Shown piece after piece: positions 13,205 through 54,883 of a stretch of 64,000 bases of DNA (position 1 is the first letter of the stretch; every line of letters starts with the position of its first letter). A program made the translations under genes and the position numbers. The notes below the pieces were generated by a model. It was not told where the DNA came from and searched no databases. It was given only the letters and a program-made list of their open reading frames with translations. Origin of the DNA: Escherichia phage vB_EcoM_11B_SA_NWU. The stretch lies in the sequence record OR062527; one strand, written 5' to 3'.

Positions 13205-13559
13205 TCACAAGTTCTTTAAAGAACTCAGTAGAGTCAGGCAATTTAACCATTTCCGGAGCATGCTTACTGAATTTATGTTTACATTGACGGCATTTATATT
13301 CAAGCTCTGGTTTACGCCAGTTAATCAATTGAACTTGTTCAGTACCGCATTCAGGGCAATTAGGAACGTTTTTAGAAGCTCTTTCACGTCGTTCAACCAT
13401 AGCCATAATAGCATCCCATGCTGGAGGTTTAAAATCTAAATCGTCGCAGCCGTGAATCTTTCCACGCATTTCCAAATCGTCTTCTTCACCAGCCATAATA
13501 ATTTTAATTAGACTAGAATTACTTGAAGCTGCAATGTCTTCTAATAAACGCTTTTTCAT
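13170..13559 (-). CDS. zinc-ribbon protein
   Basis: 129 aa; CPECG...CRQCKHKF four-cysteine motif. Confidence 0.5.
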
Positions 13560-14485
13560 TTCAATACCTCAATAGCATTACGTAAACCATTTGCTTTTGC
13601 ATTAAGAGCTTTTAACAATTTGGTGTGTTCTGCAATTTGGGCTTCAACTTCAATCAAACGGGCATTGAGATATTCACGTTCTTCACTCAAATTATCAACC
13701 TTTTCTACTTTAGGCTCTTTTACAACTGTCTTATATGTATTAGGGTTCTTCAGTTTAATTAGAATGCGTGAACTGTATAACATTGAACCATTATCTTCGG
13801 TTTCGTCATACATTTCCACTACGTCCATAATTTTTAACATCATGCGGAGTTTATAAGACAACGAACGAATAGTTTTGTTGTGCTTATTAATTTCTTTAGC
13901 TGTCATGGTGCCAAGATTACGTGAGTAATAATAAGGAACCTGGATATTAATTAATACTGATGAACCACCTGGCTTGTGTGTTACTTCATCAGCAATAACC
14001 CAGTCCTTAACATGAACTGTATTTGTACGGTCATCGCCCGCGGTAAATAGTTTGCGAGCATGCTTAAAAAGCATATTCACTTGGTCATTGAATTGACAAG
14101 CAAATTTATCAGCAAATTTAGTTTCAGGAATGGTAGAAAACCAATCAGCCAAATGAGTCTTTTTAACATCATTAACAATAGTAAATTCAACAAAATCGGT
14201 TATAGATGTCTCAGATTTAATGAAGCTCGGCTTCATAAAGTTTTTAATGTTCTCATGAGCTACAGTAGAAGATAACATACGAGAACGTTTAAACCATTCA
14301 AGCAAATTGCCTAACGAATGAGAATAAGCGTTTTGAGTATCTTTACAGATATGATTTTCCTGACCAACATATTGAAGGAAATCACGAAGAATATTATTGA
14401 TTACTGCTCTGTGCCCGATCTGATAATTACGGTGTTTAGTAATAAGACTGTCAAAATAATCAATATAATGTTTACGAGTTTTCAT
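13556..14485 (-). CDS. hypothetical protein with C-terminal coiled coil (tandem array member 1)
   Basis: 309 aa; N-terminus MKTRKHY; C-terminal heptad-rich tail. Confidence 0.55.
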   Translation of the reverse strand: MKTRKHYIDYFDSLITKHRNYQIGHRAVINNILRDFLQYVGQENHICKDTQNAYSHSLGNLLEWFKRSRMLSSTVAHENIKNFMKPSFIKSETSITDFVEFTIVNDVKKTHLADWFSTIPETKFADKFACQFNDQVNMLFKHARKLFTAGDDRTNTVHVKDWVIADEVTHKPGGSSVLINIQVPYYYSRNLGTMTAKEINKHNKTIRSLSYKLRMMLKIMDVVEMYDETEDNGSMLYSSRILIKLKNPNTYKTVVKEPKVEKVDNLSEEREYLNARLIEVEAQIAEHTKLLKALNAKANGLRNAIEVLK

Positions 14486-25199: not shown

Positions 25200-25412
25200 T
25201 CATTTTTGTCCTGTATTTACTTTATGCCGATGCACGGCCTTAACTTTATCAAGGTATTTTTCAAAATTTCGCAATCTGGTATAGTCTGCCGGAGATTGGT
25301 TGAGTGATACTTCTCGACGCAAAGCTGAAATGATATTTCCAACTTCTCTACGAATTTCATCTAATTGAAGCACAGTAAGATTGCGAAGTTGCTTTTCAGT
25401 TAATTGTAGCAT
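25200..25412 (-). CDS. hypothetical protein
   Basis: 70-aa basic ORF between rI and tk. Confidence 0.45.
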
Positions 25413-25454
25413 ATATACCCCTTTAGTTAGATAAACCTATTTATAACTTTTGCA

Positions 25455-26036
25455 CTAACCGAGCTTTTTAGTTAATTCATTCCAATGTTTTCTGCACAAA
25501 GAAACATAAATTTCATCACCAATACAGATTTGATTACCTTCTTTAACTGGTGTTCCATCTTCCATTAATCGAGCTGTCATAATCGCTTTTTTGCCGCAAT
25601 GACAAACTGCCTTTAGTTCAATAAGTTTATCTGCAATCGCTAAAAGTTCTTTAGAACCTTCGAATAATTTTCCAGCGAAATCAGTTCTTAATCCATAAGC
25701 CATAACAGGAACATTATATGTATCAACAATTCGGCTTAATTGGTGCACCTGTTCAGTTTTTAAAAACTGAGCTTCATCCACAAATACGCAATGAATATCT
25801 TTTTGTGCTTCAGCCCATTTATAGAACTCGAAAATATCCATATCATCTGTAATAATATTCGCTTCCTGCTTAATTCCAATGCGAGAAACGACTTCACAGA
25901 CAGAATCGCGAGTATCAATAGCAGGCTTAAGAACTAATACACCCATTCCACGTTCTTTATAATTATGCGCAGCAGTCAAAAGAGAAGCAGATTTTCCAGC
26001 ATTCATTGCTGCATAAGTAAAAATTAAACTCGCCAT
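25455..26036 (-). CDS. tk: Thymidine kinase
   Basis: 193 aa; P-loop AAMNAGKSASL; C-terminal zinc cysteines. Confidence 0.9.
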   Translation of the reverse strand: MASLIFTYAAMNAGKSASLLTAAHNYKERGMGVLVLKPAIDTRDSVCEVVSRIGIKQEANIITDDMDIFEFYKWAEAQKDIHCVFVDEAQFLKTEQVHQLSRIVDTYNVPVMAYGLRTDFAGKLFEGSKELLAIADKLIELKAVCHCGKKAIMTARLMEDGTPVKEGNQICIGDEIYVSLCRKHWNELTKKLG

Positions 26037-26037
26037 C

Positions 26038-26226
26038 TTAGTCCTTAGTTAAATTTTCTAAATATGTTTCTAAATCATTTTCAGCTTTATCGATAGATTT
26101 TACTAATTCGTAATATGTTTCGGCATCTCCATAATCTGAAGCCGCTTCAAAAGATAAATCTCGTTCTAAACTAATAATTTCACCAACTAAAAATAATATT
26201 TCATTCTTTTCTTCGCGAGTAATCAT
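26038..26226 (-). CDS. small acidic helical protein (family member)
   Basis: 62 aa, MITREEKNEILFLVGEI. Confidence 0.4.
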   Translation of the reverse strand: MITREEKNEILFLVGEIISLERDLSFEAASDYGDAETYYELVKSIDKAENDLETYLENLTKD

Positions 26227-26408
26227 AAGGAATTTATATAATCAATAAGTTCTTGTTCTTTATTATCGAATTCTTTAGAAAGTTCTTCGTACTCGTTTGC
26301 ACTAAAAGGACCGCATTCATTACAAACTTTTTCCAATTCACTATTTTTATCCATAACTTCGTGGATAAGAGAAAAGAGTTTGTCTTTTTGTTCTTTACTT
26401 AGGCTCAT
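26223..26408 (-). CDS. small acidic helical protein (family member)
   Basis: 61 aa, MSLSKEQKDKLFSLIHEV. Confidence 0.4.
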   Translation of the reverse strand: MSLSKEQKDKLFSLIHEVMDKNSELEKVCNECGPFSANEYEELSKEFDNKEQELIDYINSL

Positions 26409-26574
26409 ATATTAATTTCCAGAAGTTTTAAAATAATTCGCTTTTGCTTAAATATTTCCATAGTTAAATGATCAGTATCTTTTTGACCAATTCCAATGGC
26501 AAAACCTTTATTAGCAGCGAGTTCAATTAAATTATCAAGTTCACGTGACACTTCATATTGTAACTCAGAACTAT

Positions 26575-26802
26575 TCATTTCGGTTTTCCTTCTTTAACGA
26601 AATCTGGATAAGGATAAAATCCTGAATAAAATCCTTCACCTTTATGATTGATGCATCCTTTATTAGAACAATAGCACCAATAATCAAAATCACAAGTCAT
26701 TTCATCATTACATAAAGCAAAGACAACTGGCCATTCACACTTTTCACAATGGACATTTTTAAGAATACTAGTTTGGCTCATAACCATGTAACCTTTAAGC
26801 AA
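26575..26802 (-). CDS. small cysteine-rich protein
   Basis: 75 aa with nine Cys (CEKCEW, CNDEMTCDF, CYCSNKGC). Confidence 0.45.
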   Translation of the reverse strand: MLKGYMVMSQTSILKNVHCEKCEWPVVFALCNDEMTCDFDYWCYCSNKGCINHKGEGFYSGFYPYPDFVKEGKPK

Positions 26803-26990
26803 TATTCTTCTACGTGCTGTTTACGACCTTTCTTATCAATAAAGGTATATTCAACGAATGTTCCAATGTAGTCTTTATCTACATCATGTGGACTATTAAT
26901 TGGGCATTTAGTACGGCAAATGCGTTCCCATTGACGAATAATTACTGCTTTGTTTTTAGGATCAAACGGATGCGGGTAATGTACTTTCAT
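26778..26990 (-). CDS. hypothetical protein
   Basis: 70-aa ORF. Confidence 0.4.
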   Translation of the reverse strand: MKVHYPHPFDPKNKAVIIRQWERICRTKCPINSPHDVDKDYIGTFVEYTFIDKKGRKQHVEEYCLKVTWL

Positions 26991-27441
26991 AATCCACCAC
27001 TATTAAATCAATATCAGGAGTAAACATGTCAATTAATTTAGAAACCTTATCCCAATCACCGCCAGCAATACCACAACCTATGCGTGGAATGTAAATTACT
27101 GGTTTAAACAAAAGGGTTTCTGCCTGTAGATTTAATTCTATCATACAGTTTACTAAAGCACCATAATCAAGATTAGGACCCGGTTCGTATTGCGTATACA
27201 AATTATAGCACATACTAAATCCTGTAGGATTATGTTTAAAAACAATAGACATATCGCCTAATTTATCACGAGAACCGTATTCGGTTGTGGTCTTATCTAT
27301 TTCTAAAATTTTAGGATAGGCCCTTGCTAATTGACCAGCTACGCCGCTGCCCATCGTATGAAAACAATTACACCCGTGCGCAATAATATTACCTTCAAGA
27401 AAGAGGGCGACAATATCGCCCTTGATATATTTTACAATCAT
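26962..27441 (-). CDS. Macro-domain-like protein (putative ADP-ribose binding/processing)
   Basis: IAHGCNCFHTMGSGVAGQL and C-terminal IPRIGCGIAGGDW resemble the two glycine-rich macro motifs. Confidence 0.5.
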   Translation of the reverse strand: MIVKYIKGDIVALFLEGNIIAHGCNCFHTMGSGVAGQLARAYPKILEIDKTTTEYGSRDKLGDMSIVFKHNPTGFSMCYNLYTQYEPGPNLDYGALVNCMIELNLQAETLLFKPVIYIPRIGCGIAGGDWDKVSKLIDMFTPDIDLIVVDYESTLPASV

Positions 27442-27785
27442 CTAGTACTCAATCCTCGATTATAAGAATCTACTAAACGGTCAACCATTGAACGGCACGC
27501 GGCTTTGTCTTTTTCCTCCGCAACTGAGCATTCCAAGGTATTCCACTTTTTAGCATATCGTTTTAATAATGTATCGTTTTTGTATCTGCTTGTTTTATCT
27601 CTTTCTCCGTCTTTATATGCATATATTAATTTCTGCGCAAATTCAGCTTGGCATGCTTTATTTTTCCCGCAATAATCCGCTGCAGTACGGTTTACATACT
27701 CTCTAATTTCAGTATATGATGTATCTGCTAACGCAGAAGCAGAAATTGAAATTAATCCTATACATAAAACCAAAATTTTAGTCAT
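27438..27785 (-). CDS. secreted small protein
   Basis: 115 aa; N-terminal signal peptide MTKILVLCIGLISISASALA. Confidence 0.5.
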   Translation of the reverse strand: MTKILVLCIGLISISASALADTSYTEIREYVNRTAADYCGKNKACQAEFAQKLIYAYKDGERDKTSRYKNDTLLKRYAKKWNTLECSVAEEKDKAACRSMVDRLVDSYNRGLSTR

Positions 27786-28323
27786 TTACTATTTCCAAAA
27801 GTTTATTATTTTTAAGGTAATTAGCCTTTTCTAGGACTTCAGAAGCATATTTAGAACCTGCTTTAACATTCCATCCCGAATTATAAGAGGATATCGCTTT
27901 TCTTATATCGCCCTTATGTATATTTAACCAATAAGAAAGTTCAATGTACGCCCAGGAAGCTGAATTGGACCGTTTATTCAACATTCTTTTTATTTCAGCA
28001 TCGGTCATATTATAACCAAGTTCCTTAACTCTTGCTCGCATAGTAGGCAAATAATTTTGGAACATTCCGTAAGCGTGATGCTTTGGTTTAGATTTTAAAT
28101 TAACTCCGCCAGAGCTTTCTTGCCATAAAATAGCAGCCATTATATGACCTAATCCACTCTTATGAACATTTTGGTGTGTTTTATATTTTCCATCCTTAGA
28201 AAACTGTTCCCCGAATTGATACGCGTAACGCATGTTATCGAGTTGGACATTACTGAAAGTATGCTCGGAGCTATGTGCCATCATTGAAATGGCCAATAGA
28301 CCAGCGAGTAGTGCTTTTCTCAT
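27778..28323 (-). CDS. secreted lytic-transglycosylase-like protein (SLT-like)
   Basis: Signal peptide MRKALLAGLLAISMMAHS; SLT-like motifs WQESSGG, GMFQ, SSYNSGWN. Confidence 0.55.
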   Translation of the reverse strand: MRKALLAGLLAISMMAHSSEHTFSNVQLDNMRYAYQFGEQFSKDGKYKTHQNVHKSGLGHIMAAILWQESSGGVNLKSKPKHHAYGMFQNYLPTMRARVKELGYNMTDAEIKRMLNKRSNSASWAYIELSYWLNIHKGDIRKAISSYNSGWNVKAGSKYASEVLEKANYLKNNKLLEIVND

Positions 28324-28330
28324 GCTTACC

Positions 28331-28792
28331 TCATTGAGTTTTAATTACTGCTTTAGAAGCCTTTCCTGGTAAACGACGACTGTTGATAATTGCCATCCTA
28401 CATTGAAGTGACGGGTCTTTAAACTTCTCATTAGGTTTACAAACCGTAAATCCAAGCCAAAGATTTCCATCTGTGATTTCTAAACGTCCAGGACGATATT
28501 CAACCCCATCAATAAAATCCTCGTCAATGTCAGGACGCGGAGGCATACTCAGGAATTCATTAACTTCTAAAACATGGTCTTTTATTTTATGGAATAATTC
28601 AAAAACATATGTCTCATCAATCTCCCGTTGAATTGCACGATCAAGAAGATGTTGAGAATATTTTAGATGAAACGATGAGACTCCTGCTGCTTTTGATGCC
28701 TCACGAATCTCATTGTTAATTTGACGAAACTCCGACTCAAAATGACGACGAAGCTTATTTCGACGGATAAAAACTTCTGTATTGATAGTCAT
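28331..28792 (-). CDS. regB: Endoribonuclease RegB
   Basis: 153 aa; position between tk region and GrcA-like gene; recalled T4 RegB N-terminus. Confidence 0.75.
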   Translation of the reverse strand: MTINTEVFIRRNKLRRHFESEFRQINNEIREASKAAGVSSFHLKYSQHLLDRAIQREIDETYVFELFHKIKDHVLEVNEFLSMPPRPDIDEDFIDGVEYRPGRLEITDGNLWLGFTVCKPNEKFKDPSLQCRMAIINSRRLPGKASKAVIKTQ

Positions 28793-28820
28793 GTTGTTCT
28801 CCTCTTAACTGATAGAAAAA

Positions 28821-28849
28821 TTATACCACAGTCAAGAGGAAAAGTAAAC
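28821..28849 (-). promoter_or_regulatory. Early promoter upstream of regB
   Basis: Minus strand GTTTAC...TTGACT...TGGTATAAT then GAGGAG RBS and ATG. Confidence 0.5.
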
Positions 28850-28851
28850 AG

Positions 28852-29172
28852 TTATTCTTTAAATCTAATCAATTTATTCATAGACTTTGAAACTTCTGCA
28901 CGAACCTCATGTAAGTTTTTAAGCTGTTCAAGACGCTGCTCATAGTAAGCAATTTCGTCTTCTTCAAGACAGTCCTGCGAATCTTCTTTAAGATAACGTG
29001 CATAGTCCTGGAAAGCTTTACGGACTACTTCCTGGAAGTCATCAAGACTTTGAATTTTCTTAGGAGCGGCAGATACACGACGAGGTGCAGTATAATACTC
29101 ATAACCAAACCCTGCGCTTAATTGAGCCATTAGTATTTTTCCTCTGGTTGGAACACTGCACGACAAGCCCAC
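28852..29172 (-). CDS. hypothetical protein
   Basis: 106-aa ORF. Confidence 0.4.
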
Positions 29173-29411
29173 ATACTGGCTTCTTTGAGTTTCGTTTTAG
29201 CAATAGTTAACTGATCGAGGCTTTCAGCATAATTCTTCGCGAAATCACAGTCTTCGCAATTATCTAGTGCTTCCCAGAATTCATCGTATAAAGCGTCAAA
29301 GATAAGTCCTAAACGAACTTCAGCGTCTTTAATAGCATTCACTTTACCGATTTTCTCTTCAGTATGTGGTTTATAACCTTTAATATCTTCAATCATATTT
29401 GACTTCCTCAC
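29130..29411 (-). CDS. hypothetical protein
   Basis: 93-aa acidic ORF. Confidence 0.4.
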
Positions 29412-30892: not shown

Positions 30893-30979
30893 TCCTGCAT
30901 TTACCCATTACCGCACTCAGGCTCGACCTTATCACAGGTTGGCGGGAATACCTCAAATGAGGCTCAGGTTGTTCCCATG

Positions 30980-31453
30980 TTATTTAAATGATTTGACGTA
31001 CTGAACAGAACCTTTACTATTCACAAAGGCAATTTTACCGTTTTTGTTATACATTGTGGCAGTACGTTGATAGCCATAAGTTTGTTTACCAGATTGATAA
31101 CCAACTAATGCAAAATTATCTTCACCCATTTTATTCTGTTTAGCGCGAATGCGTTCATGACCGTGAGCCATAAGAACCTTAGCATCACCAGTTGCAATGG
31201 ATCTACGAGTTTTTTCATCTTCAACTGTATTAACAAAGTCGTCAAATGAATCAAATTTAGCATGAGATTTATTATACAGTTTTCCATCTACTGCATAATT
31301 ATATCCCTGTACATCCATCTCAACTTCTGTACCATCATCCAATACAGCAGTGATTTTCTGTCCTTTTTTAAATTTCAAAAGATCAGTAAAAGATTCAGCA
31401 ATAATTTGAGAATTAATAGCTGCTTCAGTAATAAATTCTTGATATGTTTTCAT
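30980..31453 (-). CDS. Internal protein (capsid-targeted, ipIII-like position)
   Basis: N-terminal capsid-targeting sequence MKTYQEFITEA; next to e as for T4 internal proteins. Confidence 0.7.
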   Translation of the reverse strand: MKTYQEFITEAAINSQIIAESFTDLLKFKKGQKITAVLDDGTEVEMDVQGYNYAVDGKLYNKSHAKFDSFDDFVNTVEDEKTRRSIATGDAKVLMAHGHERIRAKQNKMGEDNFALVGYQSGKQTYGYQRTATMYNKNGKIAFVNSKGSVQYVKSFK

Positions 31454-31547
31454 GTGTATCCTTTAAATGTAAATATTTTAATTAATAATTTATCTCTTCA
31501 AATAACTGTGAATATACTATCACAATTCTAGGAGAAAGTAAATAACT

Positions 31548-32516
<969 letters not shown>

Positions 32517-32535
<19 letters not shown>

Positions 32536-36880: not shown

Positions 36881-37531
36881 TTAAAATTTCATTTTTCGAC
36901 CTTTAAACCATCCTTCTGGAATTGGGTCAGTTTTCTTAATACGTTTAGAAACTTTTTCATCTAATGAATGAATCCACATGGTTCCAAACTGAGAATTGTA
37001 TTTTCCAGAAGAATTAATCTTGGCTGAATCAGATATTTTCTTTTTCGTTTCTTTGTTATGTAGTTTACCTAAAAATCCAAAAGTTGGTTTTCTTATTCCA
37101 TTTTCCCATTGAATTTTCATAGATTCAGAAACTTTTTGCGATACCTTCGAATAGTCTCTTCTTAAGTTAGATTCTCTTACTCCAGATGAACAAATTGATG
37201 CAAAATTTGGACTATTACAAATATGATCCCAACCGCCTTCGCCACCAATCTTAAGATTATAAACGTTGCCTTTTAAAAATTCTTCTGTTACAATTTCAAG
37301 CTCTTTTGCGTACATTTCTTTAGCAGAAGAAAATTCATACAAAATTTCTTTTGTGAAATTATTTATTCCATACTTAGCAATTGCTCTTTTTATTCTTTTA
37401 CCAGAACCCATATAACCATCATTTATATTAGATGTTTTATGAGCTCCAACATAAACAGTTCCATTGATTAAATTAGTTATTTTATAAATCAGATAATGCA
37501 TATCTCCTCCATAGTTGAGATTATTATACAT
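36881..37531 (-). CDS. segB: GIY-YIG homing endonuclease (SegB-like)
   Basis: 216 aa; N-terminal YLIYKITNLINGTVYVGAHKT; located inside the tRNA cluster. Confidence 0.75.
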   Translation of the reverse strand: MYNNLNYGGDMHYLIYKITNLINGTVYVGAHKTSNINDGYMGSGKRIKRAIAKYGINNFTKEILYEFSSAKEMYAKELEIVTEEFLKGNVYNLKIGGEGGWDHICNSPNFASICSSGVRESNLRRDYSKVSQKVSESMKIQWENGIRKPTFGFLGKLHNKETKKKISDSAKINSSGKYNSQFGTMWIHSLDEKVSKRIKKTDPIPEGWFKGRKMKF

Positions 37532-38881: not shown

Positions 38882-39271
38882 TTACCCTTCATCAACAATA
38901 GTATGAGTGTGGGCATTTACAATTTGCCACCAATCAAAGCGATTAGAACCATACATCGGTTTGTTTTCATTTTCTTTGATAATATCACGAAGTTCATCTT
39001 CAGTAGCGGCTTTCGCGATTAAATCAGCATATCCACCACGAGGATAATAATTATCACCTGCAAAAAGTAAAAAGTTTGGTTTAATGTTATTGAACTCTTC
39101 AAGAGTAATAACTGTTCCACCAGGTTGAACAATCTCTACATATTTATATCCTAATTTTTGAGCAGCATCTACTGCTTCAAGCAGGGTATCATGAGCCCAT
39201 CCAATTTGGCAATCTGGCTTTTCAGATGGATTAGCCTGATAATCCGCGTACACTTTATACATTCTATTCAC
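38882..39271 (-). CDS. hypothetical protein
   Basis: 129-aa ORF. Confidence 0.45.
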   Translation of the reverse strand: MNRMYKVYADYQANPSEKPDCQIGWAHDTLLEAVDAAQKLGYKYVEIVQPGGTVITLEEFNNIKPNFLLFAGDNYYPRGGYADLIAKAATEDELRDIIKENENKPMYGSNRFDWWQIVNAHTHTIVDEG

Positions 39272-39449
39272 CTTTAGAAATTTTATCCATAACGATAGCG
39301 ATTAAACCAATTAAAAATGCTACTACAAGTGAAAAAACATTTTCTGCTGTAGTTAATAATCCGCATATAAATCCAACAAACATTGAAAAACTAAAAGCGG
39401 AAGCAGAAATTGCAATAGCAACATTTCGAATTAATTCACAGCGTTTCAT
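39264..39449 (-). CDS. small membrane protein
   Basis: 61 aa, hydrophobic; follows promoter-leader repeat. Confidence 0.45.
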   Translation of the reverse strand: MKRCELIRNVAIAISASAFSFSMFVGFICGLLTTAENVFSLVVAFLIGLIAIVMDKISKGE

Positions 39450-53078: not shown

Positions 53079-54883
53079 TGAAACAAAATATTAATATCGG
53101 TAATGTTGTAGATGATGGTACCGGTGACTACCTGCGTAAAGGTGGTATAAAAATAAATGAAAACTTTGATGAGCTTTATTATGAACTCGGTGATGGTAAT
53201 GTTCCATATTCAGCCGGTGCCTGGAAAACTTATAATGCTTCATCTGGGCAAACATTAAAAGCTGAATGGGGAAAATCATACGCTATTAATACTTCGTCTG
53301 GAAGAGTAACACTGCAACTTCCTAAAGGAACTGTTAATGATTATAATAAAGTAATTAGAGCTAGGGATGTATTTGCAACATGGAATGTTAATCCAGTTAC
53401 TTTAGTAGCCGCTTCTGGTGATACTATCAAAGGATCATCGTCATCGGTTGAAATTAACGTTCAATTTAGTGATTTAGAGCTAGTTTATTGCGCTCCGGGT
53501 CGTTGGGAATATGTCAAAAATAAACAAATTGACAAAATTATTAGTTCAGACATTAGCAATGTAGCTCGTAAAGAATTTTTAGTCGAAGTTCAAGGACAAA
53601 CAGACTTTTTAGATATTTTCCGTGGAACTAGTTATAATGTTAATAACATCAGAGTAAAACACCGCGGTAACGAATTGTATTACGGCGATGTTTTTAGCGA
53701 AAACAGTGACTTTGGCTCTCCAGGGGAAAATGAAGGAGAATTGGTTCCTCTTGATGGATTTAATATTAGATTAAGACAGCCTTGTAATATTGGTGACACT
53801 GTTCAAATTGAAACATTTATGGATGGTGTATCGCAGTGGAGAAGTTCATACACAAGACGTCAAATAAAAGTATTAGATTCAAAATTAACATCAAAAACTT
53901 CTTTGGAAGGAAGTATTTACGTTACTGATTTATCGACAATGAAATCAATTCCATTCTCCGCATTTGGATTAATTCCAGGAGAACCTATTAATCCTAATTC
54001 TCTTGAAGTTCGTTTTAATGGAATTTTACAACAACAAGCTGGAACAGCCGGATATCCTCTGTTTTTATGTGAAGGCGCTAATTCAGATACACAAGAAGGA
54101 TGTATATCTCTTGGTGGTGAATGGAAAGAATCAAACACAGATTATTCTATAGAATATGAAGATGGAAAACCGATCAGTCTTTTATTTGATAGAAAATTTG
54201 AATCAGGTGATATAATCGTTATAACATGGTTCAATAATGATTTAGGAACTCTTTTGGAAAAAGATGACATCATTGAATTAACTGATGAACGCTATGTTAG
54301 CAAAGGATCATCTACTGAAGTTACTGGTGACGTAGCCTTAACTGATTTTGATAAAATCGGTTGGCCAAATGTTGAAAAAGTTGATTCTTATACTAGAACA
54401 TATAATTCAATATCATCTATTTTCGATAGCATTTATCCCATTGGTTCAATTTATGAAAATGCTATAAACCCAAATAATCCGGTGACTTATATGGGATTTG
54501 GTTCATGGAAATTATTTGGTAAAGGACAAGTTTTAGTAGGATGGAATGATGATGTTACGGATCCAAACTTTGCATTAAATAACAATGATTTAGATTCTAG
54601 CGGAAATCCTTCGCATACTGCCGGTGGAACAGTTGGAACAACATCAGTGACACTTGAGAACGCAAATCTTCCTGCGACTAAAACTGATGAAAAAGTTTTA
54701 ATTGAAGATGAAAACGGATCAGTTATTATTGGAGGTTGCCAATATGACCCAGATGAAACTGGTCCTATATATACAAAATATCGTGAAGACTACGCAACAA
54801 CAAACTCTTCACATACTCCTCCTGCTAATATTAGTAATATTCAACCGTCTATTACTGTATACCGTTGGATAAGGATTGCATAA
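53078..54883 (+). CDS. 10: Baseplate wedge protein gp10
   Basis: 601 aa. Confidence 0.88.

Follow-up and report, generated by a model that had tools for sequence, protein, structure and literature searches.

The open reading frame between vs and tk.3 in Escherichia phage vB_EcoM_11B_SA_NWU (record OR062527) is this phage's tk.4 (adfM), an already known gene, and its product is, as judged from sequence comparison and a structural model, a stand-alone macrodomain of the ALC1-like class (TARG1/DarG/SCO6735/Poa1). By analogy with characterized relatives, we consider it likely that this product hydrolyses the thymidine-ADP-ribose made by DarT2 on single-stranded DNA, using Gln84 and Asn25 and independently of a lysine, and in this way counters DarTG2. 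The system is not of a new kind, the macrodomain having been annotated since 2006 and its role against DarTG2 in T4 having appeared in a preprint of 2025; the interest that remains lies in a Gln-type site without the accessory features of SCO6735 and in the swapping of alleles at this locus.

Genomic context of tk.4

The window, by which we mean the whole 64,000-nt stretch that was analysed, is T4-like Tequatrovirus DNA; gene order follows that of T4 all the way between genes 46 and 5, and the region shows 96-97% nucleotide identity to many Tequatrovirus genomes. On the minus strand the genes follow the order regB, vs.1, vs, tk.4, tk.3, a pair of additional small ORFs, tk.2, tk.1 and tk (Table 1). 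Translation confirmed the 159-residue ORF and the two glycine-rich loops that the initial annotation had described, HGCNCFHTMGSGVAG at residues 22-36 and IGCGIAGG at residues 121-128 (the product sequence is quoted as MIVKYIKGDIVALFLEGNIIAHGCNCFHTMGSGVAGQ...PRIGCGIAGGDW...), and its placement in the tk-regB block was correct, with tk and regB flanking it on the same strand. The same annotation had been unsure of a T4 ortholog; there is one, T4 tk.4 (NP_049723, 155 aa), which lies at the corresponding position, with vs and tk.3 on either side, and is 59% identical to the window protein over 155/155 residues (E=3e-71). Two plus-strand ORFs that overlap the gene (26814..27023 and 27331..27465) were rejected as lacking support, the minus-strand gene accounting for the region.

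The start codon of tk.4 overlaps the stop codon of vs, which probably couples its translation to that of vs, and the GAGGA sequence ahead of it is a putative ribosome-binding site; of the 40 nt that precede the ATG, the 32 nearest to it, GAGGA included, match T4 exactly, and the one mismatch lies at -33. The gene would be expressed early, from the regB-vs transcription unit. A promoter scan of positions 25300-29300 returned 12 promoter-like sites compared with 15.3 in shuffled sequence, that is, no excess, and the sole element flagged by a terminator scan of the same interval was a hairpin within tk.4 followed by a weak T-run. That hairpin is formed by a GC-rich inverted repeat of 8 bp (AGGGCGAT-ATT-GTCGCCCT, 27404-27422) in codons 7-13, which is the same in T4 although the remaining gene has diverged.

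Several features of the surrounding DNA were recorded in their own right. A 367-bp insertion relative to T4 (26410-26776), between tk.2 and tk.3, accounts for two small minus-strand ORFs: one (26405..26578) encodes 57 aa and belongs to PHROG 3452, with no match in the Pfam search, and the other (26575..26802) encodes a Cys-rich product of 75 aa from a TTG start that matches PF23895 ('Phage zinc binding domain', E=3e-29). The adjoining tk.1 and tk.2 (26038-26408, minus strand) are paralogous and both match PHROG 653. On the other side of tk.4, vs.1 has a lytic-transglycosylase domain (E=1.5e-5) after a hydrophobic, signal-peptide-like N-terminus and is 99% identical to T4 vs.1. An ortholog of the Nudix hydrolase NudE (e.1; 32080-32535, minus strand; 98% identical to T4 NudE) was found through Pfam (NUDIX, E=2e-13), a strict Nudix-box regular expression having given no match over the window; according to the T4 record NudE is active on ADP-ribose, which a macrodomain hydrolase would release, and a functional link to tk.4 can be speculated upon. 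The vs.8-to-e interval (30893-31547) contains one internal-protein-like ORF of 157 aa (30980..31453), part of which matches ipII at 33% identity. Searches of the window with tblastn (E<=1e-3) gave no match to T4 denV, ipIII, ipI, e.7 or 49.3, nor to the homing endonucleases mobB, mobC, mobD and I-TevII, and the ADP-ribosyltransferases Alt, ModA and ModB are absent from the window.

Table 1. Features of the tk-regB region, in window coordinates
Feature	Coordinates	Strand	Description and basis
tk	25455..26036	minus	
Divergent allelic cassette	26960..27360		Nucleotide identity to T4 43-73%, vs 92-100% in flanking tk.3 and vs (sliding profile)
tk.4/adfM CDS	26962..27441	minus	ATG start, 159 aa, predicted stand-alone macrodomain
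Loop 2 / phosphate-binding loop P119-W130 (PRIGCGIAGGDW)	27052..27087	minus	G122, G124, W130 invariant
N80-L-Y-T-Q84 motif	27190..27204	minus	Q84 at catalytic-Lys column; MAFFT alignments and 121-sequence family
Loop 1 / substrate-binding loop H22-G36 (HGCNCFHTMGSGVAG)	27334..27378	minus	Invariant H22, G23, N25, C26, G33, A35 (alignments of 62 and of 121 sequences)
ATGA overlap, vs stop / tk.4 start	27438..27441	minus	Read from sequence; T4 arranged alike
vs	27438..27785	minus	
GAGGA Shine-Dalgarno-like sequence	27453..27457	minus	11 nt to ATG; read from sequence
vs.1	27778..28323	minus	Pfam SLT PF01464
regB	28331..28792	minus	

Fold and family

Chance cannot account for the macro-domain assignment. 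Residues 22-136 align with positions 2-117 of the 118-position Pfam Macro model (PF01661) at 33.8 bits, above the cut-off of 22 (E=3.7e-8), the product fell into PHROG 335 (E=5e-71), and 803 homologues were found. Searched alone against solved structures, the sequence recovered BT1257 (1e-10) and Mycobacterium tuberculosis DarG (1.5e-5), and also yeast Poa1p, SCO6735 and human TARG1; with a 62-member family profile the values became 5e-20 for BT1257, 1e-16 for TARG1, 4e-16 for SCO6735, 9e-15 for Poa1p and 9e-12 for DarG, and just 2e-3 for coronavirus Mac1. An AlphaFold2 model built from 61 sequences (pLDDT 95, pTM 0.89) has the three-layer alpha/beta/alpha macro fold, and its best Foldseek matches were TARG1, Poa1p, BT1257 and DarG; DarG was also the sole match in PADLOC (E=3.5e-7). 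The nearest neighbours in structure and sequence thus come from the ALC1-like class, not from MacroD, PARG or viral Mac1. The macro-domain call of the initial annotation is borne out by Pfam, the family profile, the model and Foldseek alike, the predicted fold being that of a macrodomain and the pocket residues being conserved in the alignment.

Two narrower assignments were considered and rejected. DarG membership fails on the missing catalytic lysine, the missing C-terminal domain and a score of 29 bits for NF048014 against its cut-off of 250, and full membership of the SCO6735/BT1257 subclass fails on the lack of the mobile-loop extension and of Lys34 and Lys89.

Active site

The aligned set comprised the window protein, T4 Tk.4, BT1257, SCO6735, Poa1p, TARG1, the DarG proteins of Thermus aquaticus and M. 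tuberculosis, and PhiKZ gp104, with comparison sequences taken from PDB alignments and the paper; MAFFT alignments anchored on solved structures were preferred, since hhalign, run between the family and PhiKZ gp104, had shifted the lysine by one column. In these alignments N80-L-Y-T-Q84 is opposite F-P-T-K in DarG and PhiKZ gp104 and L-I-T-K in TARG1. Gln84 accordingly stands in the catalytic-lysine column (TARG1 K84, T. aquaticus DarG K80 and the lysine of PhiKZ AdfM), where it corresponds to the essential Gln85 of SCO6735; BT1257 also has Gln in this column, and Poa1p has Ser. Because Gln84 takes the place of the lysine, the protein would not catalyse by means of a DarG/TARG1-type lysine. 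N80, Y82 and Q84 are present in 121/121 family sequences, down to 39% identity, and H22, G23, N25 and C26 in every non-truncated sequence among the 121.

An ADP-ribose pocket is predicted from the same comparison: N25, G33, G122 and G124 are invariant, G31 is found in 109/121, and these residues match elements of the TARG1 and DarG complexes with ADP-ribose. N25 aligns with N27 of SCO6735 and N23 of PhiKZ gp104, both of which are mutationally important, and G124 aligns with G128 of SCO6735, whose substitution by Glu reduces activity (PMC9411070). Loop 2, PRIGCGIAGGDW, is nearly identical to PRIGCGLAGGTW of SCO6735, the SCO6735/BT1257 pattern being PRIGCGLAGGxW, and Asp125 of TARG1 is replaced by Ala126. 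The accessory features of SCO6735 are missing, however: when aligned with SCO6735 and BT1257, the mobile loop of the window and T4 proteins shows a gap of 5-6 columns (the spacing from Q84 to Y93 is 8 residues in 92/121 family members and 11-12 in 28/121), Lys34 of SCO6735 is replaced by Ser32 (the family has Ala, Ser or Gly there), and Lys89 falls in the loop segment that the window protein lacks. A nearly invariant lysine particular to the family, Lys60, is a candidate to take over from these two lysines. The window protein probably uses lysine-independent catalysis of the SCO6735 type, through Gln84 and Asn25.

Allelic divergence of tk.4

Judged by its identity profile, tk.4 is a swapped allelic cassette, because the product is only 59% identical to that of T4 amid flanks of 92-100% identity (Table 1); at the protein level the genes flanking it are 96-100% identical to T4. 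The divergence is concentrated downstream, residues 1-37 (including loop 1) being 92% identical to T4 and residues 38-155 48%. Full-length counterparts of 78 T4 genes are present in the window (median identity 96.9%); of these, tk.4 ranks third in divergence after segB and trna.3, and it is among the few strongly divergent loci of T-even phages that are otherwise about 97% identical. The predicted catalytic residues are unchanged in the window allele, which is nearer to the family consensus than that of T4. Such a pattern could come either from an arms race or from the ordinary mosaicism of 'plastic' regions in T-even phages. Since the divergence of tk.4 is so strong, the gene offers a natural test case of whether counter-defence alleles track defence variants.

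Both alleles are widespread. A tk.4 homologue is encoded in 2768/50,697 phage records; the window-type allele is found at an identity of at least 90% in 318 records, and the T4-type allele in 224 records at 90% or above and in 159 at 80-90%, with intermediate alleles also present. The exact window allele recurs in hundreds of database genomes, some of which label it 'macro domain protein'.

Other outliers in divergence from T4 are nrdC.3 (13559-14485; 61% amino-acid identity), trna.3 (38885-39277; 56%) and segB (36884-37501; 51%); segB is a homing endonuclease gene, and nrdC.3 and trna.3 might be further swapped alleles. Variation was also seen within records of T4 itself. In OL964745.1, labelled Escherichia phage T4, tk.4 is matched in two pieces (53148-53544) that are annotated as two 'macro domain-containing proteins', which suggests a frameshifted or split gene, and laboratory sublines of T4 show a Ser36Gly difference in tk.4.

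Role in DarTG2 resistance and alternative explanations

The function of the T4 gene has been approached genetically. A match of tk.4 orthologs to the A1pp domain was reported in 2006 (PMC1524935), and T2 and T4 were found to remain DarTG2-resistant without AdfA and AdfN, with a further factor predicted (PMC11825919); the T2 allele of tk.4 is of the T4 type and 100% identical to it. In a preprint of November 2025 (bioRxiv 10.1101/2025.11.20.689424), the passages on tk.4 report that the gene was the single significant hit of a T4 transposon library on Escherichia coli with DarTG2, that its clean deletion made T4 sensitive to DarTG2 and that it was dispensable on plain K-12; there the gene is renamed adfM, for anti-DarT factor macrodomain, and removal of ADP-ribose from DNA by Tk.4 is the authors' inference from genetic evidence. 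The idea of a DarT counter-defence, raised in the initial annotation, is supported because T4 tk.4, conditionally essential on such hosts, is by the account in those passages the only T4 gene needed there; for its other suggestion, a role against Thoeris or NAD-derived signals, no support was found. By analogy, the window allele would confer DarTG2 resistance, so that tk.4 probably marks phage vB_EcoM_11B_SA_NWU as a DarTG2-resistant phage, and the window allele, at 59% identity, would have the same activity as T4 Tk.4.

A course of events consistent with these observations can be outlined. Tk.4 would be made early, its translation coupled to that of vs. Where host DarT2 attaches ADP-ribose to thymidines of single-stranded phage DNA, which blocks replication, the protein would bind this ADP-ribose in the cleft between loop 1 and loop 2, where Gln84, locked in place by Asn25, would position the distal ribose for a water-mediated cleavage; hydrolysis of the bond between ribose and thymine would then yield free ADP-ribose and restored DNA, and DarTG2 would be neutralized.

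DNA may not be the sole or the main substrate, because relatives act on ADP-ribose carried by protein and RNA: TARG1, DarG and SCO6735 take ADP-ribose off uracil in single-stranded RNA, and SCO6735 and TARG1 also remove Glu/Asp-linked ADP-ribose from protein. The presence of ADP-ribosyltransferases in T4-type phages likewise counts in favour of a main substrate among ADP-ribosylated RNAs or proteins (U-ADPr RNA, Glu/Asp marks, marks of other host toxins or those of Alt, ModA and ModB), of which the DarTG2 phenotype would be one facet. Alt, ModA and ModB modify arginine, however, and we know of no cleavage of the arginine-ADP-ribose linkage by this macrodomain class. Furthermore, no RNA- or protein-directed phenotype of tk.4 has been reported, and the genetic requirement described in the preprint's passages on tk.4, a single hit on DarTG2 hosts for a gene that plain K-12 does not demand, also argues against this explanation, which we regard as unlikely.

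The residues for ADP-ribose binding and for SCO6735-type catalysis are all invariant across the 121 sequences, which argues for selection on enzymatic activity and against protection mainly by binding and inhibition of DarT2 or by shielding of modified DNA; a protein of 159 aa that has no counterpart of the DarT-binding C-terminal domain of DarG (29 bits vs 250) weighs in the same direction. Protection need not be purely enzymatic, though, because direct contact with SCO6735, DarG or TARG1 is also inhibitory to DarT: the catalytically dead variants SCO6735 Q85A, DarG K80A and TARG1 K84A inhibit it in vitro, SCO6735 most strongly (PMC9411070). The surface-heavy divergence between alleles (48% over residues 38-155) would in addition suit co-evolution with a protein partner. 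On this evidence we expect protection to come from hydrolysis rather than from DarT2 binding, and hold a mainly non-catalytic role to be very unlikely.

Database labels for the family ('phosphatase', 'Poa1p-like', 'O-acetyl-ADP-ribose deacetylase'; the T4 record reads 'phosphatase; contains A1pp phosphatase motif') would make Tk.4 a small-molecule enzyme acting on ADP-ribose-1''-phosphate or O-acetyl-ADP-ribose. The 'phosphatase' label traces to an old domain name (SMART A1pp), not to an assay, Poa1p differs by a Ser at the Gln84 column and a long insertion, and such an activity would leave unexplained the DarTG2-specific requirement described in the preprint's passages on tk.4; we think it most improbable. 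A role of Tk.4 in soaking up or breaking down immune signals derived from ADP-ribose, for example the gcADPR of Thoeris, has a weak fold match in its favour and nothing else, and is given next to no weight here.

Hydrolysis of DarT2-made thymidine-ADP-ribose through Gln84 and Asn25 thus stands as the preferred reading. Beyond it, and with a good deal of doubt, one may entertain the possibility that the Tk.4/AdfM of T-even phages represents a third type of eraser of thymidine-ADP-ribose that has yet to be described, of the Gln type without the extended loop and the DNA-positioning lysines. Its C-terminal three-quarters would have been swapped, through an arms race, between T4-like phages that are nearly identical elsewhere, and alleles would differ either in the DarT2 variants that they overcome or in the substrates that they accept (dT-ADPr DNA, U-ADPr RNA or other adducts).

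Comparison with known systems

The closest comparison for the active site is with the Gln-type ALC1-like proteins SCO6735 (Streptomyces coelicolor, 5E3B) and BT1257 (Bacteroides, 2FG1/2AFC), which are 25-28% identical to the window protein and in which the Gln is held by an Asn of loop 1, as predicted for Q84 and N25; these are bacterial chromosomal genes, whereas tk.4 is a phage gene. SCO6735 outpaces DarG and TARG1 in cleaving the thymidine-ADP-ribose that DarT makes and rescues cells from DarT, and it does not cleave guanine-ADP-ribose; its Q85A and Q85E variants are inactive and N27S is nearly so, and the proposed mechanism is water-mediated, with the Gln positioning the distal ribose (PMC9411070). 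The same study calls an extended mobile loop characteristic of the SCO6735 subclass and assigns to Lys34 and Lys89 the positioning of DNA (PMC9411070); the loop extension of 5-6 residues seen in SCO6735 and BT1257 and both SCO6735 lysines are all absent from the window protein.

The 15 invariant residues, H22, N25 and Q84 among them, are all present in T4 Tk.4, which also shares the locus and the ATGA overlap. The window protein is longer (159 vs 155 aa) by four C-terminal residues, and its stop codon therefore lies 29 nt inside tk.3. Its phosphate loop, IGCGIAGGDW, is the family consensus and is closer to SCO6735 than is the unusual IGAGIGKGNW of T4.

Human TARG1/OARD1 (4J5R/4J5S) was the top Foldseek match (E=1e-9, TM about 0.8) at about 21% identity; it has in common with the window protein a short mobile loop of equal length, H at position 22 and a PRIGCG loop, and its dyad K84/D125 corresponds to Q84/A126. 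Yeast Poa1p (6LFQ), an ADP-ribose-1''-phosphate phosphatase, carries Ser where the window protein has Gln84, together with a long insertion ahead of loop 2, and its loop reads INSGIFG in place of IGCGIAGG, although its H23 aligns with H22 and its S30 with T29. DarG, the antitoxin of DarTG2 (5M3I, 5M31, 7OMU), has Lys80 in place of Gln84 and N-T-V-N in place of H-G-C-N; its C-terminal DarT-binding domain has no counterpart in the window protein, the neighbours of which are vs and tk.3, with no toxin gene. An origin of tk.4 from an orphan antitoxin was considered and gave no lead: the genes around a bacterial homologue (Pelagimonas, 39% identity) are unrelated housekeeping genes and include no ADP-ribosyltransferase.

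A second phage protein of the same name offers a contrast. PhiKZ gp104, 'AdfM', removes DarT2-made ADP-ribose from DNA in vitro, is impaired by N23A and is imported into the phage nucleus (Cell Rep 2026, PMC13309987). Like Tk.4 it is a stand-alone phage macrodomain with the same target defence and a conserved Asn (N23 and N25, respectively); unlike Tk.4 it is of the DarG-like Lys type, with an FPTK motif and an E value of 9e-25 to M. tuberculosis DarG, and it is 20-23% identical to the Tk.4 family (hhalign probability 96%). The split between Gln and Lys is absent from that paper (term search, PMC13309987) and from the preprint's passages on tk.4, adfM and DarTG2, and to this extent the Gln-type active site of T-even Tk.4 goes beyond the papers cited here, as does the allele swap at this locus. 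On alignment the two AdfMs belong to different macrodomain branches, and their chemistry probably differs because they come from separate branches with different catalytic residues. The one name AdfM would then cover two lineages, with Lys in PhiKZ and Gln in the T-even phages.
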